This document shows positions 631-53,106 of a DNA stretch of 64,000 nucleotides, piece after piece. Below the pieces are notes generated by a model. That model ran no database searches, was not told the origin of the DNA, and was given only the letters and a program-made list of their open reading frames with translations. Where the stretch lies: the sequence record OR992645.1, one strand, 5' to 3'. Each line of letters starts with the position of its first letter. Positions within the stretch are counted from its first letter, which is position 1. The DNA comes from Escherichia phage EI-SP-GF. A program made the translations under genes and the position numbers.

Positions 631-3600
631 AAGGCATTCCTGCAGATGAGGAGTGGAAAGGATTCATGTGTGGTCCGAACGGGGCGATAATTGCAACGCA
701 GAGGATGCACAAGCCTAATGATCAGCAACTTGTTAACGTATTCTACGGGCAAGATGTCTGGGGAGATGATACATGGCGTTCCTTAAATATTACCTACACC
801 CATGAAGTAATAATGGCTCGTGGGTACGGAACAAGTGGCATTTTCTTCAATAATGGTACTAAGCAGTATCGCGGATTCTCTCGCAACCTGTGCAACGATA
901 TTGGAGCACAATCTGCAAACAATAATCCTCGCGCCAATTTTATCCATTATCAAGCTCTTGCTACAGCCAAGTATGTTGAGCAACGACTGCCAGTTAGCTG
1001 GACAGAGAGTGTTTACTTCCAGGGTATTCATAGAGAAGGTTTTTTAGGGACCTTTACCGTTGTTAATGGCAAACTTTGGTGGTCAGGCATCCCAAGGGGA
1101 AGTTTTGCAGGATCTAATAACCTGTTTGGCGGCAGACTTAACAGCCAGGGGTTCACAGAGGTTCCTGAGAATTGGTATAAAAATGTCCCAGTAGATAGTT
1201 GGGATATTGATGATATTTTTGACGTTAACGGTGTTAGCAGTGTTAGCAATATTTACATCGGTGACACGGTCAAGATGAAATTGAAGCCTCAACCAGAGGG
1301 GGCCACGTTCATTATTGACAAGATTGAACTGGTAAATGCTGCAGGCACGGTTGTTACAGATGCAAATTACCAATTCTCCACCAACTGGAACCACGGCGGG
1401 GCCAACGAGGTTGTTGTTACTCAGTATAACAGAAATGTTAACAGACGCGGTCTGTACTCTGTAAAAATAACCTATCATGACAAGCATGGCACGGGCAGAA
1501 CTCACACAACAAGGACTTTGAACTGGAACACTATAGTTCCTGCGTATCCGTCTGATGGTAAATGGCACACTGTAGGCAGAAACAAACAGTTCCATGTTAA
1601 CGATACTGTGTACTTTGGGCTTAACGCTGCTCAGCCAGCTCCAGAAAGCGATACAGCGTATATGGTTCGGCTGCACAGGCAAGATGCTGGGTCTGTTACC
1701 TACGATGTGACCCAAGAGATCTACAATCAGAGACGCTCCACGTATGACAATATTGTGAAAACACAAGCCTTGTGGGAGTTCAACCCTAACGGCAAAGGTG
1801 GTAAAATGTTGCAGGTTAACGAGCAAAACGGAACATCGTTAACTGTCCACGAACACCCAGACCCTTGGCCTGACCCTGGTAAACCTAACTCAGGTGCTCG
1901 CACACTGCAAGTTGTCAGTCATGATGTAGGCTATTTTGGGATACGTTGGGAGGCCACAGTAAAATATGCCGATGGGACAACAAACAACATAGGGATTACG
2001 CTTGGTGGCACTAGTGAGAGTAACTCGCTGAAAATTGCCTACACTCCTAGAGGTATCTCTATTGACAACATGGATATAGTCCGTAACGGTTACGGAGATG
2101 TAAACATCAAAGTTACTCTTGGTGAGCATCTTGGCGGAGAAAGGATCATTATGTATGCCTTTGATCATGACCCTCGAACCAACGGAACTTATGCAAATCA
2201 GGCCTGGAGTTACCTGATAAGTGCACCTGAGCCGAATACTAAAGAATTCTACTACGGTATGAAGCGAGATGTGTGCAAGAAAACAGGAACACACGACTGG
2301 ATTGCTATCTGTGTTAAAGATGAGAGAACAGCTTGGGATGAGCCTGTTAACCGCTGGTTCATAGGTATTCCCACCAGAAGTGATAAATACGTTGAAGAAT
2401 ATATTGTATGTATGGGCGGCACCAACCTCAACATGTGTTGGAACGAGGACGCAAACAAATATTCTGATTATGACTATATGAGGGACTACTCTTGTAATCA
2501 ATGGTTCAACCAATCCGGGTATGCTAATAGACAGTCAAGGGTAAACCCTGCAATCTTCACAGATACGCAGGTTTTCTTGACAAAACAGGCCAACGAGGTT
2601 CAGACCTTCAAGAACAACTATGATCCTAACAAGTGGTTCTACAACTGTTCCGGAGCAATATTCTGGGGGCCTGGTGAACTGCCTGATAGTGGTTCTTGCT
2701 TCGAGGCTGCAACCTATGGCAGTGACTATATTATGGGGCAGGTCAAGAAGTACAAGATGATTCCAGGACCTGAAACTTTAGGTAATGCTGTTGACCCGTA
2801 CATAAATTTCGCAGCTATACATGCTAATATGGATGGAGAGAGATATCCGTTTGTTGTTCCGTTAACTTGGGGGTACAAACGTGTCGTGATGATTATTAAA
2901 TGCGATCTGATCGGGAAGCAAGTTCTTGCAGAAAATGGAACATCCACACACCCTTTTGAAGTTGCTCTGCACTACCAGTTTGCAGACTCACCATATGCAG
3001 GGGATAAAAGAATATCCGACACAGACTCTAAGCGCTGTAAGAAAGTTTTACTTGGAGCCGGGTGGTGGTGGTACGAGTTTGATTTGACAGATAAGTTCAC
3101 AGATGATACCAAAACTCTCACAGGTATCCGTCTGGACCTTGGTGAGAACATGCATAAAAGTGTTTGTGATGGTACCTACGGTGACCCTACGGTATATCTA
3201 AAGTATGTTTCTCTTGAGCATCGCGAAGAGGATGTTTACGGTCCAAAACTGAGATTGTTTGGCGCATGGATTGCCAAAGACAGAGTAGGTATGGGTAAGA
3301 AGGTGAGAGGCTTCTTGATAGATGTAGGGACAGAGGACATGCTGGTTAATGCAGTATGGCCTGAATTACCCGGAACTCAGTGGAACAACTCTGCCAAATC
3401 TATAAACTGGTACAATATTCACAGAGCTATGTGGACCACTAACTGCTACTTGTGGAGAGAGCTTAACGATCAGGCCTTTGGCTTTAGTAACGGCAGAAGG
3501 ATGGCGATCATTTGCTGGACAACATTGCAAAGATGTTATGACCATGACTATGAGATTGGTGGTAGGGCATGGAAAGATATCAGGGACAGAGTTATATACA

Positions 3601-5477
3601 ATTTTGCAGACGATAATGGTGGCGGGGCATATAACTTTGGCACAAGCCGACTTATCCATTTGAACGGATCCTCAGCCTACAAGAAAGAGGGTTACTCTGG
3701 GTCTATGATTGAGTGGGGTCTGGTGAAAGATGCTCGCGTATTGATGGGTCAACAACTTGCTGCTGCAATAGGACCTAGCGCAGTGCAGTCGGTTAAACCA
3801 GCGTGGTTCGATATCCCAATATGGTCATCTGGAACACCAGGAACTGCGGCAATTAACCCTACCACCGGAGATTTGGAAATCTCTTGGGAGGACTTAAAGC
3901 AGGTCGGTGGCTGGGATAAGACTGGGTACCAGGTGCAATGGTGGAGATCTGACGGATCGTTAGCGGCTGATGAGTTTGTTAAGGACAATTTCTACACCAT
4001 GTCCTCTGCAAAAGCACAACAATTGTTTGGTCAGGCCACCCCGTCAACGATCACTATGTCCATGTGCTGTAAAGACAACAGGACGGGAGCTCTGGGACCA
4101 AGGGTTGCTAAAGTTTTCTCAGGTATTAAATGGAATCTCCCTGTTCAAAGTGTTTCATGGAAGCAAATAGGTGATAACAAGCTGCTGGTTACTCCTGCCT
4201 GTCAGTTCAACGCAACTCTTAACGTTGATCCTGCTGTTGCGGCAAACTCAGCTAAAGCTTCTGACTTCTCTGTGTCTAACACTGCTATGGCAGATGTGAG
4301 GAAGATTGACACACTGAACGCCAGAATTACCTGTAAAAACACTTATGGCACATTCCAGATCATCAACAACTTCACAGATGCTGATTCTAAGGTAGTAAGG
4401 ACAGCAAGCCAGACTATGCAGTTGGGCACTCTGGCATACTCTGCCCTGATCACTGAACAATCTCCTACTCTTCAGGGTGGGGGTGTTGGTAAGTTGATCA
4501 CAACACCTGTGTGGAAGCCAAATGAGTGGGTTGTGTTTGATTTGACTGTAGACTTCTCCAGTGACAATAACTGGACATGGGTAAGGAATTGCTTGCCACA
4601 GTTGATGGGCGGTCCAAATTCCGTTAGTGATAGCCACGACTCTACCGATCCGAGCGTGTTCCAGGTGGGGAAAACTCACCCAGAGACTGGGGAAACGTTG
4701 CCTGACAGGAAGTATGCTTTAGTTTGCATCTCCAACGGCAAGGCAGATATAACCTTCTCGGGGATACACTCGTATAACGGCACTTACAACTTCTCTAAAA
4801 AGTACAGCCTCAAGGCAGGTAACATTATAGACGAAGTTGGTCCGTTATATAACCCAGGTAACGGTATTGGGATTGTAACTGGTATTCTTCCTATGCAGGA
4901 GCCTTCTATAACCCCAGCCAACGTGCCTGGTATCAGAAAAACTTGGGAAAGTAGCAATACCAATATTGCAACAGTGGATGCTACCACAGGACTGGTAACA
5001 TTTAAGGCTACCGGGAATGTCACCATAAGGTTTGTAGTTACAGATGATGCAGGCCGCAAAACGTCTTCAACATCGTTTACTGTCAAACAGATGGCACCTC
5101 AGTGGTTTATTTGGGAAGGAAATCCTCTTGACGGGGCTTACCCTAGACCTGCAGGAACGTCTAATATGAGGGTCTTTACCGGTCCAGTCATGGACAATCC
5201 AACCACAACCACCAACCCTGCATTTTTTGGTGCTTACATACCTGAAATTATTGGCCTACCAAGGAACCAAATACAATTGCTTTTCGGGGCAGGCGTTGAT
5301 GGTCTAGCCACTTTCGGGTACAGTGACAACATTGATGCAGCCAGAAGCTCGGGTTGGATTGGATTTAAGTTCCAGTGGAACCCTGGTGGTAGAACATTAG
5401 GTCTTGCAAGTGTAGGTGTTATGCTGCCTGGCAACCAGCAATACCATCTCGAAGCTTATACAAACTTCCCTAGTTAA
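597..5477 (+). CDS. Large tail fibre / host-recognition structural protein (about 1600 aa) with C-terminal Big_2-like Ig domain
   Basis: 4.9 kb ORF; Ig-like segment ...TWESSNTNIATVDATTGLVTFKATGNVTIRFVVTDDAGR...; start uncertain (frame open from 585, TTG 597, first ATG 666); followed by strong terminator. Confidence 0.75.
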   Translation: MAPAQITRNDLKGIPADEEWKGFMCGPNGAIIATQRMHKPNDQQLVNVFYGQDVWGDDTWRSLNITYTHEVIMARGYGTSGIFFNNGTKQYRGFSRNLCNDIGAQSANNNPRANFIHYQALATAKYVEQRLPVSWTESVYFQGIHREGFLGTFTVVNGKLWWSGIPRGSFAGSNNLFGGRLNSQGFTEVPENWYKNVPVDSWDIDDIFDVNGVSSVSNIYIGDTVKMKLKPQPEGATFIIDKIELVNAAGTVVTDANYQFSTNWNHGGANEVVVTQYNRNVNRRGLYSVKITYHDKHGTGRTHTTRTLNWNTIVPAYPSDGKWHTVGRNKQFHVNDTVYFGLNAAQPAPESDTAYMVRLHRQDAGSVTYDVTQEIYNQRRSTYDNIVKTQALWEFNPNGKGGKMLQVNEQNGTSLTVHEHPDPWPDPGKPNSGARTLQVVSHDVGYFGIRWEATVKYADGTTNNIGITLGGTSESNSLKIAYTPRGISIDNMDIVRNGYGDVNIKVTLGEHLGGERIIMYAFDHDPRTNGTYANQAWSYLISAPEPNTKEFYYGMKRDVCKKTGTHDWIAICVKDERTAWDEPVNRWFIGIPTRSDKYVEEYIVCMGGTNLNMCWNEDANKYSDYDYMRDYSCNQWFNQSGYANRQSRVNPAIFTDTQVFLTKQANEVQTFKNNYDPNKWFYNCSGAIFWGPGELPDSGSCFEAATYGSDYIMGQVKKYKMIPGPETLGNAVDPYINFAAIHANMDGERYPFVVPLTWGYKRVVMIIKCDLIGKQVLAENGTSTHPFEVALHYQFADSPYAGDKRISDTDSKRCKKVLLGAGWWWYEFDLTDKFTDDTKTLTGIRLDLGENMHKSVCDGTYGDPTVYLKYVSLEHREEDVYGPKLRLFGAWIAKDRVGMGKKVRGFLIDVGTEDMLVNAVWPELPGTQWNNSAKSINWYNIHRAMWTTNCYLWRELNDQAFGFSNGRRMAIICWTTLQRCYDHDYEIGGRAWKDIRDRVIYNFADDNGGGAYNFGTSRLIHLNGSSAYKKEGYSGSMIEWGLVKDARVLMGQQLAAAIGPSAVQSVKPAWFDIPIWSSGTPGTAAINPTTGDLEISWEDLKQVGGWDKTGYQVQWWRSDGSLAADEFVKDNFYTMSSAKAQQLFGQATPSTITMSMCCKDNRTGALGPRVAKVFSGIKWNLPVQSVSWKQIGDNKLLVTPACQFNATLNVDPAVAANSAKASDFSVSNTAMADVRKIDTLNARITCKNTYGTFQIINNFTDADSKVVRTASQTMQLGTLAYSALITEQSPTLQGGGVGKLITTPVWKPNEWVVFDLTVDFSSDNNWTWVRNCLPQLMGGPNSVSDSHDSTDPSVFQVGKTHPETGETLPDRKYALVCISNGKADITFSGIHSYNGTYNFSKKYSLKAGNIIDEVGPLYNPGNGIGIVTGILPMQEPSITPANVPGIRKTWESSNTNIATVDATTGLVTFKATGNVTIRFVVTDDAGRKTSSTSFTVKQMAPQWFIWEGNPLDGAYPRPAGTSNMRVFTGPVMDNPTTTTNPAFFGAYIPEIIGLPRNQIQLLFGAGVDGLATFGYSDNIDAARSSGWIGFKFQWNPGGRTLGLASVGVMLPGNQQYHLEAYTNFPS

Positions 5478-6298: not shown

Positions 6299-6679
6299 TT
6301 ATGACGATTTGACGTAGCGCTCTGACAAAGCTGGGAAGCCAAAAGCAGCACCTACACTACCGTACGCTATCCACCATTGAAGTTCATCGTGACACCATTT
6401 TCCGATCAGAAAGGTGCTGGGGTAGCGAGTCAGTATTTTGGCATAAGCTTTAGGGTCTGCATCCTCTGGGATAATGATGCTTGGAACATCTTTGTTATGA
6501 CCACAGCAGCAGTTTAGAGTTTTCAATCCTGCCGCCCATAGACTCATGATAGGTTTAGCCATGCACTTATCAAGGCACACACGTTTTTTGCCGTCACGGA
6601 GCTTTTTAGGCACATCAACGATAACATTTGGATGCTTGGCACCTTTCACTTTCCAATTATAAGATTTACACTTGCACAT
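6299..6679 (-). CDS. Cys-rich hypothetical protein
   Basis: 126 aa ORF; CKCK...CCCGHN cysteine cluster. Confidence 0.55.
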   Translation of the reverse strand: MCKCKSYNWKVKGAKHPNVIVDVPKKLRDGKKRVCLDKCMAKPIMSLWAAGLKTLNCCCGHNKDVPSIIIPEDADPKAYAKILTRYPSTFLIGKWCHDELQWWIAYGSVGAAFGFPALSERYVKSS

Positions 6680-6880: not shown

Positions 6881-7356
6881 GGTTCTTTCTCCGGTTCAGG
6901 ATCTGGGTAATCTTCAATAATAAAGGGCCATCCGTTACGCTTAGCGTCAGACTTATACTCAATCTCCTTCATTGCAAACTCTAACTGATTCTTAGCCGGA
7001 ATGCAAGCTGGAGAGTCATCAACCCAGATGTCTGGGTAGATATCAAACTGCGCCAGATAAGCGGCCTTCTGAACGCCTCCAGTATAAAACACTCCAACAT
7101 CGAGCTCCTTGCGCCAGTATTCGATGTCCACGTTGTCTTGAGTGATGAATCGGGAAGTCACAAGATAGACTGTCCACCCTTCCTTCTTCAGGTCCTTAAT
7201 AAGGCGGGAGAAGATGAAAGGGCTCGCATTAAACGTTCCATCAAAGTCAATAGCAATGATGTGTGTGCCGTGACGAGTCTCATATGGATTACTCGTGGTG
7301 AGATTGCTGTAGTTAAAAGGTACTTCTTCTCCGCAGTAGCTGTAGTCCATATTCAC
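6877..7356 (-). CDS. HAD-superfamily phosphatase (nucleotidase-like)
   Basis: Motif I IAIDFDGT (DxDGT) near N-terminus, later VDDSP; 159 aa. Confidence 0.7.
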   Translation of the reverse strand: MNMDYSYCGEEVPFNYSNLTTSNPYETRHGTHIIAIDFDGTFNASPFIFSRLIKDLKKEGWTVYLVTSRFITQDNVDIEYWRKELDVGVFYTGGVQKAAYLAQFDIYPDIWVDDSPACIPAKNQLEFAMKEIEYKSDAKRNGWPFIIEDYPDPEPEKEP

Positions 7357-7628
7357 ACCTTCTCGTTGATAAATTTACGGGCGGTTTGGTGAGTTGTTTC
7401 TGCTGTCTTCAGAATGATATTAATTTTATTGTCAAGATCATTCATCTCAGCAGTTAATTCAGGAATCTCTCCAGCATGCATGGTGAAATCATACATAGAC
7501 ATACCCAGGATCTCATTGATGCGGCGGTTGCATTCTGCAGCACGCTGGTTCATTTTCCAAGCTAACACCAAAGCCTCCTGCGTAGCCTCCAGTGCAAAGT
7601 CTAATACGTCAGCTTCTTCTTTCGTCAT
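7353..7628 (-). CDS. Hypothetical protein
   Basis: 91 aa ORF, 4 nt overlap with downstream gene. Confidence 0.55.
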   Translation of the reverse strand: MTKEEADVLDFALEATQEALVLAWKMNQRAAECNRRINEILGMSMYDFTMHAGEIPELTAEMNDLDNKINIILKTAETTHQTARKFINEKV

Positions 7629-7684
7629 CTCAGTCTCTCTTGTTGTATTGTTGATAGGTGTATGAATGCTTTATAACTCACCTT

Positions 7685-8251
7685 TTATTCAAACTGCAAT
7701 AGCAAATCCACTACCGCGCTAGGTCTGTCAACAAATTCCCCAGGCCCACATGCCCACAGAGGGTATCCGTCTACATACCGCCAAATCCAACCTGCAGTGT
7801 GGAGTTCTAGCAGGGCAGTACCGTCTTTACTGTCAACCACTCTTTCCCACAGTGTTGGGCAGCGAAGCTTGAGGATCGGATCCCCTCCCTTATACCCATC
7901 CATGTAGATACCCATCGCAAAGTTTAACATCATCTTTTTGTGCACTGACCTCTTACTGAGGGTGCTCATCACTTCCTCTTTGTGAATGTTTGTAAGCTTC
8001 TCCTTGGCTACCCGCAGATCGTTGCAGCCATTGTTCAGAAGATCTTCCAGACACTTGATCCGAAGGTCGTGAATATCTTTGTCGTGCACCGTTGGTACAG
8101 GGTCGTAGCGATAGAGCACCGTTGATACAAGGTTGCTCGGGTGTGGGTCTGACAGCAACCCATAACCCCAATACTCCTCTGTATCTGAAAGGACAAGACA
8201 CCCAATGTCTCTGTCAAGCTTTCCTGTGTTGTAAGCCACATTGACCGCCAT
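7685..8251 (-). CDS. Hypothetical protein
   Basis: 188 aa ORF in co-directional array. Confidence 0.6.
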   Translation of the reverse strand: MAVNVAYNTGKLDRDIGCLVLSDTEEYWGYGLLSDPHPSNLVSTVLYRYDPVPTVHDKDIHDLRIKCLEDLLNNGCNDLRVAKEKLTNIHKEEVMSTLSKRSVHKKMMLNFAMGIYMDGYKGGDPILKLRCPTLWERVVDSKDGTALLELHTAGWIWRYVDGYPLWACGPGEFVDRPSAVVDLLLQFE

Positions 8252-21541: not shown

Positions 21542-21879
21542 GTTTGTGGAGAAATATAGTTAACTACGTGTGCGGTAATCCAAATCCTGAAGAGAAGGAT
21601 GTTGTGATTCACGATTTTACTAAAAGATCTCGTGAAAAAGACCTCCTGCTAACAAAGGTGATCGATAAAGACCCTGCAGTAGGAGATTGGGCAGGTTTTG
21701 CGTTTACATCTGACAAATACACCTTTAACAAAGGTGACTACCTTGTTGTGGATTTTAACGAAGACATCGAGGGTGCTGAACCTTACTATCAGACCCTTAT
21801 CGTTGCAGAGTGTGTTGAGCTCTCTGCAAACATGCACAGTTTGATTCTTTTTGAGCTTGACTCTGAAGACCTTCAGTAG
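21538..21879 (+). CDS. Hypothetical protein
   Basis: 113 aa ORF, overlapping start/stop, GGGGG RBS. Confidence 0.55.
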   Translation: MSLWRNIVNYVCGNPNPEEKDVVIHDFTKRSREKDLLLTKVIDKDPAVGDWAGFAFTSDKYTFNKGDYLVVDFNEDIEGAEPYYQTLIVAECVELSANMHSLILFELDSEDLQ

Positions 21880-42698: not shown

Positions 42699-43079
42699 AT
42701 GAAAAACACTACTAAAGCTATTGACACCGTTATGTTTAACCTGGTTACCTTTCGCGAGGATATGAAAGATCTTCCACGTGAAACAGTGTGCGATCACATT
42801 GAAAACTATCGCAAACTAATCAAAGAGTTGCCTTTAAAACGTGATCAGTATGCGGCTAACGCCATGCTTAATGCCATGATCAAAAAGATGATCCAGTGTG
42901 ATTTAACTTTGGCCTATGACTATGCTGGTGGTCGTTTTGCAGTATACAATCAGCCCGTGCCCGGTATGGGCACCACCGAAGAATTGCACGCGCTCAATCT
43001 AAAACAAGACGTGTGGGATAGTATGCCCCGCGTGGTGGTGTGGGCAGAAAGCGGAAAGATTTACGGCGATAATTTTTAA
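42699..43079 (+). CDS. Hypothetical protein
   Basis: AAGAGGTAAACA RBS preceded by hairpin GGGGCAAGACGTTTGCCCCC. Confidence 0.6.
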   Translation: MKNTTKAIDTVMFNLVTFREDMKDLPRETVCDHIENYRKLIKELPLKRDQYAANAMLNAMIKKMIQCDLTLAYDYAGGRFAVYNQPVPGMGTTEELHALNLKQDVWDSMPRVVVWAESGKIYGDNF

Positions 43080-47330: not shown

Positions 47331-47638
47331 TCGCTATTACGCCAACCGTTTTAGATTGGTATCGGCAACGCATAGCGCCTCCACTGGCTATCTTCAAAGA
47401 TGCGGAAGCAAAACAACGCCGGATCTCAATACATGAGATCATCAACCTTAACGCTGGAGGCACACCATACCGCCCAGGACCTGGCCGTGAGATGGACAAT
47501 ACATTGGCGATCCTGAAGATACGCCGTAAACGGTCCTCCCTTACGCTGGATTCATTACACACAATGCAGTCTCCGTTCCAGGTGACTGGGAAACGGATCG
47601 CCAGGTCCTGGACAAAGGCCAATGACCGGACCGTATAA
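47327..47638 (+). CDS. Hypothetical protein
   Basis: GGGGG RBS; 103 aa. Confidence 0.5.
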   Translation: MIAITPTVLDWYRQRIAPPLAIFKDAEAKQRRISIHEIINLNAGGTPYRPGPGREMDNTLAILKIRRKRSSLTLDSLHTMQSPFQVTGKRIARSWTKANDRTV

Positions 47639-47772
47639 ATAAAAGTGTTTTGGTACTGATTTTGGGGTTGACTTGTTCGGCCCCTTTTGCTATTCTTATT
47701 AAACGGGCGGCACTTGGGAACAGGTGGAGACAATCACCGGGCCTGCCTGTCATATAAGAACTATAAAAACCG

Positions 47773-47801
47773 TTGACATCTGCCATGGGGTGGGGTAACA
47801 T
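47773..47801 (+). promoter_or_regulatory. Sigma70-like promoter (TTGACA-17-TAACAT)
   Basis: TTGACA 47773-47778; AGAGAGGAAAACAC RBS downstream. Confidence 0.5.
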
Positions 47802-47855
47802 TTATCTTGAAGGGGCAAAGGTGCCCACACAACAACCAGAAGAGAGGAAAACACT

Positions 47856-48128
47856 ATGTCAAGCTGGATTAATCAAGAAGTCGAATCACGTTTTAATGCT
47901 ATTTGGGATCTCATCGAAAAAGAAGACGGCACATCAAGCCCCTACCTCAACAATTTGGAATTCCATTTTGTGGAAGCGATGAACGCAGAACATGATCACG
48001 AAGGTGGTGCGGACGAGTTCGCTAAAGGGTATGGCTTCAACAATGCCAACGAAATGATCGAGGCGGTTGTACTCCAGGCTGAGGAAGATTATCAATTAAA
48101 AACGCTTGAATTCTGCCGCCGTAAGTAA
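47856..48128 (+). CDS. Hypothetical acidic protein
   Basis: 90 aa ORF with strong RBS. Confidence 0.55.
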   Translation: MSSWINQEVESRFNAIWDLIEKEDGTSSPYLNNLEFHFVEAMNAEHDHEGGADEFAKGYGFNNANEMIEAVVLQAEEDYQLKTLEFCRRK

Positions 48129-48188
48129 TAAGATAATGACACGGGCCGGGAGGCCCACTAATCAGAACCGCACAAAGAGGTAAACATC

Positions 48189-48452
48189 ATGAAACGTCTT
48201 GATCAGCTTAAACTAGTTCAGTACATGGCCTACAAAATTCTTGAAGTCCAAAAAGGTAGCAAAAAAGAGGTTTGCGAGAAAGCGTACAAGATCTTTACTC
48301 GTAAAAAAGACGATTGGATGTTGCGCCAGACTAAAAAGGCTGACATCTTGGGGTACCTGGAAGAAGAGATCCGACTTGAAGAGCAAGAAGAGATCCGCCG
48401 TAGTGAGGCAGATTATCAGGCAGCCTGGGAAAGCTGGATGAATAACAAATAA
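48189..48452 (+). CDS. Hypothetical protein
   Basis: AAGAGGTAAACATC RBS; 87 aa. Confidence 0.55.
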   Translation: MKRLDQLKLVQYMAYKILEVQKGSKKEVCEKAYKIFTRKKDDWMLRQTKKADILGYLEEEIRLEEQEEIRRSEADYQAAWESWMNNK

Positions 48453-48519
48453 TACAACAGGTTGCATGGTCAGGGGCGATAAAGCCCCTTGATCACATAA
48501 AAAATTATGCTATCCCTTG

Positions 48520-48548
48520 TTGACAGGGATCGGCAGTTTTGCTATATT
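48520..48548 (+). promoter_or_regulatory. Sigma70-like promoter (TTGACA-17-TATATT)
   Basis: TTGACA 48520-48525, TATATT 48543-48548. Confidence 0.6.
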
Positions 48549-48597
48549 CTTTTTTGAAGGGAAGTTGTAAGAAAATTAACTAAGAGGTAAAAACACC

Positions 48598-49017
48598 ATG
48601 AACATTAAATCTGATAATCCGGCATATAGCTTTGATAACGCTTTTTGTCACGGTCCGGCGGCGAAAGGATTCGAAATCGATGGTAAACTAGTTATTGTCA
48701 ATGTTGACGGGGAAGAGGTTGCAGTATATCCGGTGGCAGACGTTAAAAGCCGTCTACAATGCCGCATCGATGTTACCGCCTACCAGCTTGATCCGGTCCG
48801 GGTAGTTGCCCTGGTCCTGGAAGAAGAAATTAAAGCAATGCACCACAGCAACAAGTTTATTGGTGACGCTCAAGATAATATGAAGGTGTGCCGCCATAAA
48901 GTTAATGAAGTGCTTAAAGAATATGGCTTTAAAGATCTGATGATCAAACGTGAGGAAAAATTCCGCTACCGTAACGACCTGGCAAATCGGATTTTTGAAA
49001 TATACGAATCATTATAA
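48598..49017 (+). CDS. Hypothetical protein; last gene of plus-strand array
   Basis: AAGAGGTAAAAACACC RBS; 139 aa; followed by terminator. Confidence 0.6.
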   Translation: MNIKSDNPAYSFDNAFCHGPAAKGFEIDGKLVIVNVDGEEVAVYPVADVKSRLQCRIDVTAYQLDPVRVVALVLEEEIKAMHHSNKFIGDAQDNMKVCRHKVNEVLKEYGFKDLMIKREEKFRYRNDLANRIFEIYESL

Positions 49018-49036
49018 TTTCTTAACTGAATTATCA

Positions 49037-49063
49037 AGGGGCTTAAAGGCCCCTTTCTTTTTG
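49037..49063 (+). terminator. Rho-independent terminator
   Basis: GGGGC-ttaaag-GCCCC then TTTCTTTTT. Confidence 0.7.
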
Positions 49064-49670
49064 TCTGCTCTTCTCCTACCATAAACGGCCCTACCTGGCA
49101 AGTGGAATAATTGACTAGCCATCAATCCCACACACTGTACAAATATACATGGAAAATAACTATTGCATAATCTTTCATTGTGTGGTAGCAAGGCCATTTT
49201 TACCCGTTTTCTCTCCCAAAAGTGCACGTAATGCAGCTATTGCACAAATTTTAACCTGATGCATATCTCCAATATCTTGTCAACAACTAAAAATCTTTAT
49301 AAGTCATACACTTACACAGCATCGAAAGCGTGTTCTACGCGAAAAATCGAGTATAACTATAGCCGCCAGATCTCAGAATTCACGTACGCACGCCATTCTA
49401 TAGCCTGCAAAGTATTTATTCCAACCACAGAATAACGGAATAGTCAATACCTGCATAAAATAATTATTCGTGTAAACTGCATAACATAAATCAGCTCAGG
49501 TGTCAACATTTTTCGTAAACAGTCCGAAATTATCACGATGAGTTATCATAAACAGAGAAATCTTTAGTCGTCTAATGTTTACTGTACATTACTATACTGA
49601 CTGGAATCATTAGATGACTAAGAAAAAGATAAGAAATAATTAATAATGTAATTGTTTTACCTGTAACAAT

Positions 49671-49849
49671 AAGGCAACTATGCAAACGAATGGCATGGCG
49701 CGACGGAGTCGCGACATAATATAAAAGCAGTAACCATCACCCCCGTGATGGTTTTTCTGCAATCTATTATTCAGATCATAGTTGCCTTGTATTTAGTTAA
49801 TCATGACATAACAAGCAAGGCAACTGTAGATCTTCTAATAGTTGCCCTG
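49671..49849. repeat. Inverted repeats of AAGGCAACT / AGTTGCC(T/C)T (four half-sites) plus CGCGAC-gga-GTCGCG palindrome
   Basis: AAGGCAACT at 49671 and 49816; ATAGTTGCC at 49777 and 49838; GC palindrome at about 49698-49715. Confidence 0.65.
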
Positions 49850-49879
49850 CTTTTATATTATGTCATAGATTATTAACTT

Positions 49880-50110
49880 ATTAACTGTCAGCTTGTTGGC
49901 TGTTAGCTTGTCAATTGTTATCTTGTTAATTGTTTTCATGCAAACGAATGTCATGGCTTATCATCTCTGTGTAAACAGTTTGGGCGTAAACTATTCAGGC
50001 GTAAACAGTCTATGAGTAAACAGTGAGATATGGAATAGTAACAGCCGTTATTGTGTCATATTGTGCTGCAGTGCGTTATGTTGTGCCATATTGTGTCACT
50101 ATTATGTCAG
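49880..50110. repeat. Three short tandem-repeat families in non-coding DNA (CTTGTT-type, GTAAACAGT x4-5, ATATTGTG x3)
   Basis: GTAAACAGT copies between about 49971 and 50035; TTGTTAGCTTGT-like units 49885-49935; ATATTGTG units 50058-50095. Confidence 0.65.
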
Positions 50111-51557
50111 ACAAGTTTTTCCTCTCTTTGTCAAGTGCTGCATGAAAAATTTACAAACTGGTATGGTAGCATTTTTGCGGCCCTGTTTACATTCAGTTGT
50201 GTATGTATAACCCTTGTTGTGTGGGCGTTTAGACGTCTGGACGGTCAGAAGTCCGCAGGTTAATATCTAATCTATTGGCTGCTGACTATATCCCACACAA
50301 ATAGTAAGAAATATAATTGTTATATGCGTAAACAGTAACCCATGTTATCAATCCCTGTATGTATCGCCAGTGGTGCGCATAATGGGTATTATGTTAAATT
50401 GCCCGTAATGATAACCATTCTCACAATGATAGGTATTCTCATTCACTCCCACAAGATAGATTGCAAATGTTGTGCCACTGTGTGAACGGCCTGGCCTATT
50501 AATTTGCCTCACTGCCTCGATATTTGAGAATTATTATAAAAATGAGAAGTATTCCCATTCCGTCCGCCTGGCAGCACTCCAGTCGCTACCGGCTCCTGAC
50601 AGGGCAGCACTCCTGTAGGACAAGCACAAAATCGGGGCATAACTGCCTGTTCAGATATTTCTGGCTAACTCTTCAGGCCTGTGTGGGAAAAGCCAACCTC
50701 TCCGGCGGCGGGGAGGGGTCAATTAAAAAATTTAGGTGGTGTATGAAGCGCTCTTCAGGCAAGGTGTGTATTATGGGATGAAACCCTCTTCAGGTGATGA
50801 TATTTGTGGGTGTGATATTTGCTGGAAAGCCAGATATGACGGGACTCCCGGCGGGGCAGGGGTAGTACAGGCAGGGAAAATGTGAGGATGTGGTGGGAGT
50901 AAATTGATCAGGCAGGTAGGATATGGAATATGTTACAAGTATGTTAAATATGGAGGCAGGATATTTGTAAGATTTGTGTGTAAAATCAAAGACTTAAGTG
51001 GTGTTGTGGTATTTTCTATAAATAATTCAAGTTTAATAGGTAATATTTGTCTCTATCCGCTTTGTGTGGTAAACAGATTCTAATTGAATTGGTTTACAAG
51101 TGTATATAAAGTATACAAATTAAAGATATAAGAAACCCCCCTCCCCCTTCGGCTACCATTCACCTTTTCCTCTGACTGGTACTTAAACACTTATTCAGAC
51201 TCTTCAGGTTATCACCCATATACTATATGGCAGTGACTGGTGTCCTCCGGCCCCTCTTTCGTCACCCGTCCGCTTCGCCATGCTAATGCCATAGCTAAAG
51301 GTTCGGTTGTTCACCCTGTTCACTCAGGTGTATCTCCATACCCCTTCAAACCGAAGAGAACAGAAAACCCGAATTACTCGGTAAAAGAAAAGAGAAGAAC
51401 TTAATTTTATCAGGATAGGCAAGAATGTCAAGGGATGACTGCTCACTAAACAAGCAAACAGTCATGTGTGGTAGGTAAGTGATTGTGGTGGTGGAAAATT
51501 TAGTTGAAAGATGTGTTATAGTGCTTCCAGCACTTTAGCCGGGCGGCTAATTGTGTG

Positions 51558-51773
51558 TCAGTCCAGCGGTTCATCCTCCACTTCACTGAAATCAATGTTC
51601 AGGGTCTCTTCCCAACCATCGATCTCAGCACAAGAGTGAAGTTCTTTAGGGTTTACTCCCAAAGCCTCAGCAACAGAGTCTATATTTAACACCTCTGGCA
51701 GGTATGATTCATCGAATTCAAGGTAAATCAGGCCACGAGTGTTGTCAGCTCCACCAAATATTTCTATCTTCAT
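51558..51773 (-). CDS. Small acidic hypothetical protein
   Basis: 71 aa ORF, last gene of minus-strand array. Confidence 0.5.
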   Translation of the reverse strand: MKIEIFGGADNTRGLIYLEFDESYLPEVLNIDSVAEALGVNPKELHSCAEIDGWEETLNIDFSEVEDEPLD

Positions 51774-51894
51774 GAAATCTCCTCTGGAAATGAGAGTGTG
51801 AACAGGGTTTTATACGTCCCAATGCACAGGAATTATGCACGTTTGCCTCTTCAGGCCATGCTTTAGCATGAGGAACCTGTGTGGGCTCGGTGCT

Positions 51895-52233
51895 TCATAG
51901 TCTACCACCTCTGAACTCTTCGTGCTCAGGCATAATAGAGAACCAGATATCTACGATGTCCTCCCACGTCAGGTCATCAGCCTCAGGATCTACCTGGAGC
52001 GAAGATGGAGAATCTTCAGAATCGAAGTTTTCCTCTTTCACTGGCTCAGCCAATGGACATATGGTCACTCCTTCAGATGTCTCTTCAGATGCATGTGTGT
52101 TGATCATGTTCCACCCGTGAGTATTCCGGCAACAGCCGCTATGGACGTAATGATCATCAGGATCACCACTAAAACTTCGGACAATGTTCTCATTGTGTAT
52201 TCCATATTCTCCAAACTGTGTGGATACTATCAC
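51895..52233 (-). CDS. Acidic hypothetical protein (start uncertain)
   Basis: Minus-strand promoter 52224-52252 overlaps the annotated start; true start probably at an internal Met. Confidence 0.4.
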   Translation of the reverse strand: MIVSTQFGEYGIHNENIVRSFSGDPDDHYVHSGCCRNTHGWNMINTHASEETSEGVTICPLAEPVKEENFDSEDSPSSLQVDPEADDLTWEDIVDIWFSIMPEHEEFRGGRL

Positions 52234-52252
52234 TGTAGCGGTAATGTGTCAA
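52224..52252 (-). promoter_or_regulatory. Sigma70-like promoter (TTGACA-17-TAGTAT), minus strand
   Basis: Reverse complement reads TTGACA, 17 nt, TAGTAT. Confidence 0.5.
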
Positions 52253-52417
52253 CAGAAACGCCGCGAGGGTTTGGTTAAAATCCGAGCGTATGGTGATTTG
52301 GGTCAAAACGGACGTGCGTTCTCGCTACGCTCGAAATAGAGAGTTGTTTGTAGGAAGCTCTTAAACGCTTTGTAATGAGATTAACTACCCAAGGTATGCA
52401 ATCGTGCACCAGATAAA

Positions 52418-52445
52418 GAAAAGGACGCCACAGAGCGTCCTAGGT
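52418..52445 (-). terminator. Rho-independent terminator, minus strand
   Basis: GGACGC-tctgtg-GCGTCC followed on the minus strand by TTTTCTTTAT. Confidence 0.65.
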
Positions 52446-52465
52446 GTCTTAAATTTGATGTTTTG

Positions 52466-52777
52466 CTATACCCATGAGGGCTTATCAAGGTTGGAGTAGC
52501 TGAAAGGTGTCAAAAGGTGACTGTCAAAATCTCTCAAACTATCCAGATCTTTTTCCTCGTCCTGACACCATCTGTGCCTACATTTATTGTTGTAGTGCAT
52601 AGAATGCATAGCGTTCTGCAACTTAACAGGCACAAGCGATTCAGGAGTAGATAGTATTGTTGGGTATGCCAGGACTATCTCAAACAATGGAAACACATCG
52701 AAACTGAAGTTTGTTTCTGCAGAGGTTGATGGCATGTAGGAGTATTTAGCCGCCTTTGTAGACATAATCCACCTCAC
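52466..52777 (-). CDS. Hypothetical protein
   Basis: 103 aa ORF. Confidence 0.5.
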   Translation of the reverse strand: MRWIMSTKAAKYSYMPSTSAETNFSFDVFPLFEIVLAYPTILSTPESLVPVKLQNAMHSMHYNNKCRHRWCQDEEKDLDSLRDFDSHLLTPFSYSNLDKPSWV

Positions 52778-53106
52778 ACAGGTTTGATAATACCTTCACC
52801 GAATAACTCTTCGTATCTAATCTTGTCCGGATCCCACTCCTGGATAATTTCGAAGATAATATCCAACCCTGGGATAATCACTTCTCCAGTGTCAAGCTTA
52901 GCAAGAACAAAACCGGAAGGTTGAATGGTTTCCCAGTTACGGCGATCAGAATAAAATACTTCGAAAATATCACCAACCTCAATCCGTTTCTGTTGCTCAA
53001 GATGCTCAAGGTTCTCTTTCATACGGATGCAGCGGATTTTTCGTGCAGGCCATAGACCACCTGCATCACGTTCATTCAATTCTTTTACAGTGATCGGCAT
53101 ACCCAT
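52774..53106 (-). CDS. Hypothetical protein
   Basis: 110 aa ORF. Confidence 0.55.
   Translation of the reverse strand: MGMPITVKELNERDAGGLWPARKIRCIRMKENLEHLEQQKRIEVGDIFEVFYSDRRNWETIQPSGFVLAKLDTGEVIIPGLDIIFEIIQEWDPDKIRYEELFGEGIIKPV

Follow-up and report, generated by a model that had tools for sequence, protein, structure and literature searches.

A gene-free, repeat-dense zone in Escherichia phage EI-SP-GF probably marks the collapsed junction of the chromosome ends of a vequintavirus

Phages of the genus Vequintavirus are rV5-like myoviruses of ~137 kb. Many of them are candidates for therapy, and their packaging mode bears on the risk of transduction; the literature on their chromosome ends is inconsistent, with genomes called circularly permuted (rV5, 2013) or headful (BpE1AUH, 2026) versus fixed ends with repeats of 458/459 bp (HdK5, EdH4, Gotham). 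Phages EdH4 and HdK5 were described with "short terminal redundancies of 458 bp" (PMC6563267), Gotham has 459-bp terminal repeats and its reads show one specific packaging start for all virions (PMC7471380), and KPP-1, a more distant member of the Vequintavirinae, has a repeat of 514 bp at twofold coverage and was assigned to T7-type packaging by PhageTerm (PMC9862379); a terminal repeat is thus already known for the genus. In the rV5 genome paper (2013, PMC3606486) a grey box "labeled non-coding" and without open reading frames (ORFs) lies between the converging units that end in genes 164 and 163, and the change in GC/AT skew at this place was ascribed by its authors to transcription polarity. 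Here we describe the corresponding zone, positions 49018-51557, of Escherichia phage EI-SP-GF (OR992645.1), numbered within a window of 64,000 nucleotides that is the whole stretch of DNA analyzed. This zone is very probably the site at which a circularised or collapsed assembly has brought together both ends of the linear chromosome, judging by its homology to the ends of related genomes.

About 120 phage records, nearly all of them Vequintavirus Escherichia phages, match the zone over its full length with 86-96% identity, and a low-stringency blastn search matched it within the genus only. Comparison with the ends of deposited records identified positions 50110..50568 (no strand assigned; GACAAGTTTTT...CCGTCCGCC) as a single, presumably collapsed copy of a 459-bp direct terminal repeat. 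Gotham is annotated with a repeat_region at 1-459 and at 136567-137025, the two copies being identical (459/459) and mapping to window positions 50568..50110, while the record of HdK5, a phage from another laboratory, begins and ends with an exact 459-bp repeat whose boundaries are the same; in these two relatives the same sequence therefore occupies both virion ends. Moreover, the first base of the bov10K2, bov22_2, EdH4 and YN3 records corresponds to 50568, and the base equivalent to 50110 is the start of the Aya record and the end of that of ECP2303, so that at least eight records open at either of the two boundary bases. The boundaries ...TGTCA/GACAAG and ...CCGTCCGCC/TGGCAGC (the slash marks the cut) are conserved in 10/10 panel genomes and the repeat is 92-97% identical to that of close relatives, that is, the ends are invariant, sequence-specific and conserved among relatives.

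Since 50110-50568 equals the terminal repeat of these relatives, the zone would represent the point at which the ends of the virion chromosome were collapsed into one junction, and we infer that EI-SP-GF shares these ends. The contig would then be a collapsed and permuted representation, with the true chromosome start at 50110 and its end at 50568, which is what matters for annotation or engineering of the phage. The sequence-only reading had offered a genome-terminus junction, a packaging region or a replication origin as explanations for the zone: the first is directly supported by the record ends, the second would follow from it because fixed-end terminal repeats are cut from concatemers at specific sites, and nothing that we computed supports the third. 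Compared with Gotham, HdK5, EdH4 and the non-coding box of rV5, the sequence is homologous, the boundaries are identical and the site between rV5 genes 163 and 164 is the same; we found no substantive difference, apart from the position of the one collapsed copy in the middle of a contig and array copy numbers that vary by phage.

If the zone were instead a pac region for headful packaging, in a genome with circular permutation and terminal redundancy, the record ends would be arbitrary choices of the submitters. The rV5 genome was indeed called circularly permuted (PMC3606486), PhageTerm suggested headful packaging with partial permutation for the vequintavirus BpE1AUH in a study of 2026, and most deposited records are opened at arbitrary positions. 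However, the records that share the two opening bases come from several laboratories and two of them have the exact 459-bp copy at both ends, the Gotham reads give one start for all virions, the rV5 claim rests on 3.6-fold Sanger coverage, and a sharp switch of conservation at both boundaries (see below) suits defined cut sites. The base-exact agreement among independent records outweighs the statements on permutation and headful packaging, and we consider a headful pac region very improbable here. Besides those statements, other points weigh against a fixed-end junction: the termini of EI-SP-GF are assigned by homology (92-97% identity within the repeat) with one copy visible, no obvious cleavage motif is common to both boundaries, the sites proposed below for terminase are candidates, and two repeat-bearing parts, the GTAAAC array (absent in phage V18) and ~80% of the left core (deleted in phage FV3), are individually dispensable.

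A tandem duplication of ~540 bp was observed in Shigella phage CM1 (MK962749, ~2400-3100), equivalent to window 50040-50568. It comprises part of the left array and the whole repeat, with the end ...CCGTCCGCC joined directly to the array and followed by the second repeat copy, and may be either a real junction duplication or an assembly artefact of the repeat.

We aligned 10 vequintavirus genomes from 47518 to 53057 and found that conservation switches abruptly at exactly 50110 and 50568. The repeat interior (50110-50568) has a mean pairwise distance of 0.048, and it is bordered by two indel-rich stretches, 240 bp on the left (49868-50109) and 100 bp on the right (50569-50667), with mean distances of 0.287 and 0.176, respectively. 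Beyond these, distances fall to 0.08-0.09 in the outer arms, 0.025 in a left core (49661-49867) and 0.013 in a right-arm element (51139-51445), compared with 0.19-0.40 at synonymous sites of the neighbouring genes. With the exception of the two boundary-flanking stretches, the zone is under purifying selection at the nucleotide level, and the block formed by the repeat and its arrays is framed on either side by ~1 kb of non-coding DNA under strong constraint. With its conserved repeat, arrays that vary strongly right at both cut sites, and arms whose rate of change is several-fold lower than that of synonymous sites, the zone offers a map for studying how fixed ends are formed in a large myovirus.

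The left outer arm (49061..49660, no strand assigned) is AT-rich, moderately constrained non-coding DNA with a pairwise distance of 0.080; the AT-richest pocket of the zone (49550-49700) begins within it and a second one is found at 49850-49950, both with a GC content of 26-30%. The left core (49661..49867, no strand assigned) contains four RGGCAACTRT half-sites (49672+, 49778-, 49818+ and 49838-), that is, two inverted pairs within 176 bp, with 6 copies in the window against 0.53 expected. It also contains the direct repeat ATGCAAACGAATGGCATGGC at 49680-49699, the palindrome CGCGAC-GGA-GTCGCG at 49699-49713 (read directly), an 18-nt inverted repeat without mismatches (49713-49730 / 49847-49864) and, at 49732-49753, a hairpin that has a CCCC loop and is accompanied by T-runs on both strands.

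The hypervariable arrays on the left of the repeat (49868..50109, + strand) adjoin its boundary and consist of TTATTAAC x2 (49870-49886), TGTTAGCTTGTCAAT x2.3 (49901-49934, where AGCTTGTCAAT units follow a 15-nt period), the second copy of the 20-nt direct repeat (49938-49957, the first starting at 49680), GTAAAC(A/T)(G/A)T x4 with a 15-nt period (49971-50024) and T(A/G)TTGTGYCA x6 with a 10-nt period (50049-50109), whose last unit ends at the cut ...TATGTCA/GACAAG. The window has five exact copies of GTAAACAGT, where 0.54 would be expected per 64 kb; every one of them lies in the zone and on the + strand, and four form the 15-nt-period array at 49971-50024. For TRTTGTGYCA the figures are 6 against 0.78. 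The repeat families listed in the sequence-only reading were thus all recovered in their places and far above chance, and to them we can add, besides the 18-nt and 20-nt repeats, CTCTTCAGG x4, GATATTTG x4 and TGTGTGGTA x3. Across genomes the number of GT[AG]AAC copies varies between 1 and 7.

On the other side of the repeat, the hypervariable right flank (50569..50667, + strand) carries GGCAGCACTCC(A/T)GT twice, at 50570-50583 and 50603-50616; rV5, NHEP1 and Murica have lost one GGCAGCACTCC copy, and in EduardKellenberger and CM1 the segment is replaced. The right arm that follows (50668..51117, + strand) contains CTCTTCAGG (50669, 50751, 50786), GATATTTG (50799, 50814, 50960) and G-cluster motifs, and an unbiased k-mer screen showed that CTCTTCAGG, GATATTTG, TGTGTGGTA and TAATTGTT are all orientation-locked. 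The + strand is strongly depleted of C over ~250 nt (~50800-51050), with a GC skew of up to +0.70; a minus-strand transcript through this segment would be C-rich, G-poor and similar to a Rho-utilisation site, and one from the plus strand would be rich in G, with a tendency to form R-loops. That CTCTTCAGG, TGTGTGGTA and GATATTTG are parts of rightward promoters stayed no more than an idea, the window copies being without usable -35/-10 spacing. Copies of CTCTTCAGG were also seen outside the zone, at 51847-51855, 4468-4476 and 21586-21594; one outside copy lies in + orientation in the spacer between two minus-strand genes just to the right of the zone, and a sister clade described below carries a copy at the equivalent spot (L020, 8725).

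Natural deletions bear on which of these parts may be needed. Phage FV3 (JQ031132) has lost exactly 258 bp between the 20-nt direct repeats ATGCAAACGAATG(G/T)CATGGC (window 49700-49957), which reads as a clean repeat-mediated deletion. The loss takes the palindrome, the 18-nt inverted repeat and 3/4 of the GGCAACT sites, covering ~168/207 bp of the left core (49700-49867) and leaving the first half-site and one 20-nt copy; FV3 is also without the 139-aa (amino acid) flanking gene (window 48460-49029). Phage V18 (KY683736) lacks 49870-50082 with every GTAAAC unit, the arrays being replaced by 66 nt that include a T13 run. On the evidence of these deposited genomes, ultra-conserved parts of the left arm can be dispensed with, and therefore the GTAAAC array and the deleted ~80% of the left core cannot each be an essential packaging signal. 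The repeat and the right arm are kept in all genomes examined and, in favor of the fixed-end junction, the boundary-proximal TGTGTCA-type units persist even in V18, which lost the other arrays.

Under the fixed-end reading, the virion chromosome would have one copy of the repeat at its start (5'-GACAAGTTTTT...) and one at its end (...CCGTCCGCC-3'). By analogy with T7, replication would produce head-to-tail concatemers with one repeat per junction; the terminase would recognise sequences around the junction and cut at the two fixed boundaries, and the repeat would be duplicated during maturation. The tandem arrays at the left boundary and the duplicated GGCAGCACTCC at the right one are the likeliest recognition or positioning sites for the small terminase, the final ...TGTGTCA units that end exactly at the cut being the strongest candidates. 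The constrained arms of ~1 kb would hold the terminators of both converging transcription units, and in the right arm a conserved host-type promoter would transcribe toward the junction, probably yielding a structured non-coding RNA. Chi sites were considered as a protection of the ends and rejected; the only Chi of the window is at 42924, outside the zone.

Phages T7 and T3, with repeats of 160-230 bp and pac signals, are similar in having fixed ends, a repeat of a few hundred bp and adjoining short tandem repeats; in T7, arrays of short repeats reportedly adjoin the terminal repeat, an observation attributed to Dunn and Studier in 1983. With respect to phiOL/phiOR, which lie near the T7/T3 ends, the likeness extends to a promoter reading toward the junction in a non-coding setting. 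However, T7 is a 40-kb podovirus, whereas here we deal with a 137-kb myovirus without a phage RNA polymerase, with a host sigma-70 promoter and with two flanking gene arrays that both read toward the ends instead of leading away from the left one, and there is no sequence similarity. In T7, recognition sequences lie near the termini and pausing of the RNA polymerase at the concatemer junction recruits the terminase (PMC3276506), to which the promoter reading toward the junction would be an intriguing parallel; T7 phagemids require a pac site plus the terminal repeat (PMC13236587).

A looser likeness is found with phage T5, whose chromosome has a large gene-free segment near one end with dense direct and inverted repeats and, reportedly, sequences resembling DnaA boxes. 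This injection-stop-signal region shares with our zone its gene-free, repeat-dense character near a chromosome end, and its DnaA-box-like sequences have a counterpart in one relative of EI-SP-GF (see below). Nevertheless, the T5 terminal repeat is of ~10 kb and encodes pre-early genes, unlike the non-coding 459-bp repeat, the T5 region acts in a two-step DNA transfer that is not known from rV5-like phages, and the two are not similar in sequence.

A sister clade was recovered by scanning IMG/VR and metagenomes, where IMG/VR yielded few loci and about half of the metagenome matches were due to chance. It comprises uncultivated phages of ~137-140 kb (L020, L024, L025, L027, L028, L037, L038, L043 and L046), has no cultured member in the phage collection and is not Septuagintavirus. 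The anchor gene beside the zone has 92% protein identity in this clade and only three islands of the zone are alignable, among them 49257-49366 of the left outer arm (by BLAST to L020 and L046) and 50778-50861 of the right arm. Read by eye, L020 (IMGVR_UViG_3300045988_159287) nevertheless has the same architecture in a diverged sequence: a pair of 20-nt direct repeats at a spacing of 243 bp versus 258 bp in the window, the inverted repeat GACATAATAACGCTGAG / CTCAGCGTTATTATGTC in place of GACATAATATAAAAGCAG / CTGCTTTTATATTATGTC, a CCCC-loop hairpin whose stem is changed yet still pairs, a different short array (AAGTATGCCTA x2) at the expected left boundary and a recognisable right boundary. The CTCTTCAGG and GATATTTGTGGG families are present, and CTCTTCAGG and GATATTTG recur although their surroundings cannot be aligned. 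Because arrangements are kept with changed sequence, they argue for a function exerted through structure or through symmetric protein binding. L020 has an insertion in its right arm, a gene for a 256-aa HNH endonuclease (7216-7986, + strand; Pfam HNH_3, E=1.6e-18). It is preceded by TTGACTCTTCAGGCCGTGTGTGGTATATT, an extended -10 promoter close to consensus in which two of the zone repeat motifs occur; this is the one copy that fits the rightward-promoter idea. At 6344-6386, inside the equivalent of the repeat, L020 has three perfect DnaA boxes (TGTGGATAA) in tandem with 12- and 19-nt spacing. Neither these boxes nor the HNH gene are in the zone of the window.

The DnaA boxes of L020 bring up the third proposal, that the zone is or contains a replication origin, either of iteron type (GTAAACAGT or GGCAACT plus an AT-rich unwinding segment) or primed by transcription, from the promoter at 51431-51404 described below or by rightward transcription through the G-rich 50700-50900. 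Several features would fit: iteron-like direct repeats with regular 15-nt spacing adjoin the AT-rich pockets, an ultra-conserved strong promoter has no gene to serve, cumulative GC skew turns at the zone, and an origin would be compatible with a terminus. T7 itself has promoter-associated secondary origins near both ends. Against this, no DnaA box is found in the zone even when one mismatch is allowed, the GTAAAC array of 1-7 units is absent from V18 and ~80% of the core with the GGCAACT sites and the palindrome (49700-49867) is deleted in FV3, and no initiator protein is known for the group. The skew turn coincides with the change of coding strand, in line with the transcription polarity invoked by the rV5 authors, and a literature search on the genus found no transcriptome or replication-mapping study. 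The origin reading is not supported: nothing computed favors it specifically and the candidate iterons are hypervariable or deletable, so we regard an origin in the zone as unlikely.

That no credible ORF is present, as had been stated from the sequence, was confirmed by codon phase, pN/pS (ratio of nonsynonymous to synonymous change), breakage of ORFs and family searches. The longest ORFs of the zone have 85, 71 and 70 aa. In a codon-phase test on the 10-genome alignment, with the six flanking genes as controls, substitutions in the zone were distributed evenly over the three phases (218/226/228, p=0.88), whereas each flanking gene displayed a strong third-position bias (p from 9e-5 to 4e-16). 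The pN/pS of the zone ORFs was 0.38-1.5 versus 0.06-0.17 for the flanking genes, the majority of these ORFs are interrupted in relatives, and the seven longest had no match in PHROGs and Pfam. The phase bias, low pN/pS and ORFs intact across relatives that mark protein-coding genes are thus wanting in the zone.

Some automatic annotations (NHEP1, Mangalyan, MiataMamis and PMBT16) place 12-16 tiny "hypothetical proteins" here, as would be expected if small genes had been overlooked by other annotators, and one hydrophobic 47-aa ORF (MLSIPVCIASGAHNGYYVKLPVMITILTMIGILIHSHKIDCKCCATV; 50342-50485, + strand, inside the terminal repeat) is intact in most relatives with a pN/pS of 0.38. It is intact in 8/10 panel genomes with a weak third-position bias (p=0.03), and its tblastn alignment spans at least 80% of its length in 110/119 records, the other 9 having less than 80% query coverage. 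On the other hand, no Shine-Dalgarno sequence precedes this ORF, it has diverged at synonymous sites far less than real genes do, and it is truncated at residue 22 in the lowest-ranked of the matching records; curated annotations (rV5, BASEL phages) have no feature in the zone. The 47-aa ORF is probably not a gene and the dozen or more tiny proteins called by some pipelines are spurious; in view of the absent phase bias and the broken ORFs without family matches, we find it hardly credible that the zone conceals small protein-coding genes.

The slowest-evolving stretch of the region is the ultra-conserved element at 51139..51445 (minus strand), for which a promoter scan, the alignment and a consensus fold suggest a candidate non-coding RNA of ~265 nt. 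It carries a sigma-70 promoter, TTGACA-N16-TGATAAAAT, from 51431 to 51404 on the minus strand, which scored highest among the promoter matches of the region (11/12, the -10 being extended by TG), faces the terminal repeat and has no gene downstream. The early promoters in the rV5 table belong to the same class; this one is not listed there because that search covered only the sequences upstream of genes. Predicted sigma-70 promoters and terminators are not enriched in 48500-52000 over shuffled sequences (14 vs 9.7 and 4 vs 2.7, respectively), so only individual sites carry meaning. After the promoter come a CU-rich leader, a small hairpin with a U-run (51381-51369), further helices and the G-tract GGGGGAGGGGGG (~51139-51150, minus strand), at which the conserved block ends sharply, three phages diverging directly beyond it. 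In the alignment, a hairpin directly upstream of the promoter (ATGACTG...CAGTCAT; 51435..51465, minus strand) is kept by the sister clade with a different stem, ATACCTAC...GTAGGTAT; that clade has its promoter, TTGCAA-N17-TG(C/A)TATAAT, at the same place, and the small hairpin and U-run downstream are present in both clades with stems that differ but still pair.

When 11 sequences from the two clades were folded as a consensus, the promoter strand reached -32.9 kcal/mol versus -12.3 for the other strand, compared with an average of -15.5 +/- 4.2 for column shuffles (z -4.2 versus +0.75). In the consensus structure 99.4% of cells are paired and 12 pairs are doubly changed, against 0-4 in slid controls, all compensations coming from a single clade-to-clade contrast and the structure being derived from the same alignment. 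The single-sequence fold of the block was no better than shuffles (z -1.26 and -0.04 for the two strands). A covariance-model scan, the check that the sequence-only reading had suggested, was carried out and gave no tRNA and no Rfam family in the zone: no Rfam 15 model reached its gathering score anywhere in the window or E<=1 within 48900-51700, and a tRNA/tmRNA scan of the window detected none. A transcribed structured RNA of ~265 nt, or an attenuated product of 40 nt, is plausible on the basis of promoter and predicted fold. That the element is an undescribed phage RNA made by the host RNA polymerase from an early-type promoter, and that this RNA or its transcription toward the junction acts in end maturation or packaging, where the host polymerase would play the part that the pausing T7 RNA polymerase has at its concatemer junction, or in replication priming at the chromosome end, is a speculative and rather improbable proposal. 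Only two parts appear to be so far undescribed, namely the detailed layout of the junction and the conserved promoter with its RNA element, and the promoter and RNA candidate near the end are the only part that could prove new biology.

These data could also mean that the zone is chiefly a non-coding RNA locus, its conservation reflecting structured RNA rather than packaging signals at the DNA level. The conserved promoter, the strand-specific folding and compensated pairs, and the lowest distance of the region are what such a locus would display. However, the element spans ~300 of the 2540 bases, the covariation comes from one contrast of two clades, the single-sequence fold is unremarkable, no Rfam family is hit, and the terminal repeat and its arrays are left unexplained; this explanation is somewhat unlikely, and the junction of chromosome ends accounts for the zone better.

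Regarding the edges of the zone, + strand genes stop at 49017 and - strand genes stop at 51558, with coding-phase evidence on both sides, so the convergence of two gene arrays claimed from the sequence holds. A terminator scan found an intrinsic terminator of the + strand array at 49036..49065 (+ strand; stem AAGGGGC/GCCCCTT plus a T-run), which is t164 of phage rV5 (rV5 Table S4) and is an annotated terminator in Murica and HdK5. At the other edge the same scan found a palindromic GC-rich hairpin, TTAGCCGGGCGGCTAA (51535..51550, no strand assigned), just past the stop of the last - strand gene, which is possibly the terminator of that array.

Outside the genus, Phapecoctavirus (the phAPEC8/ESCO5/UP17 group) has the same 139-aa anchor gene (~90% aa identity), after which come a terminator and a gap of ~1.6 kb without genes. 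The sequence of this gap (UP17; L018, 5420-7020) is unrelated to the zone beyond window position 49063 and has none of the vequintavirus zone motifs, and the genes past it stay on the same strand, in contrast with the convergence seen in vequintaviruses.

As to host labels, 19 records named 'Campylobacter phage' (UNVERIFIED, host C. jejuni) are 87-92% identical to the zone, and these labels look doubtful. Finally, the ESCO5 record (L016/L017) opens within its gene-free gap, which hints at an analogous terminus position in another genus.

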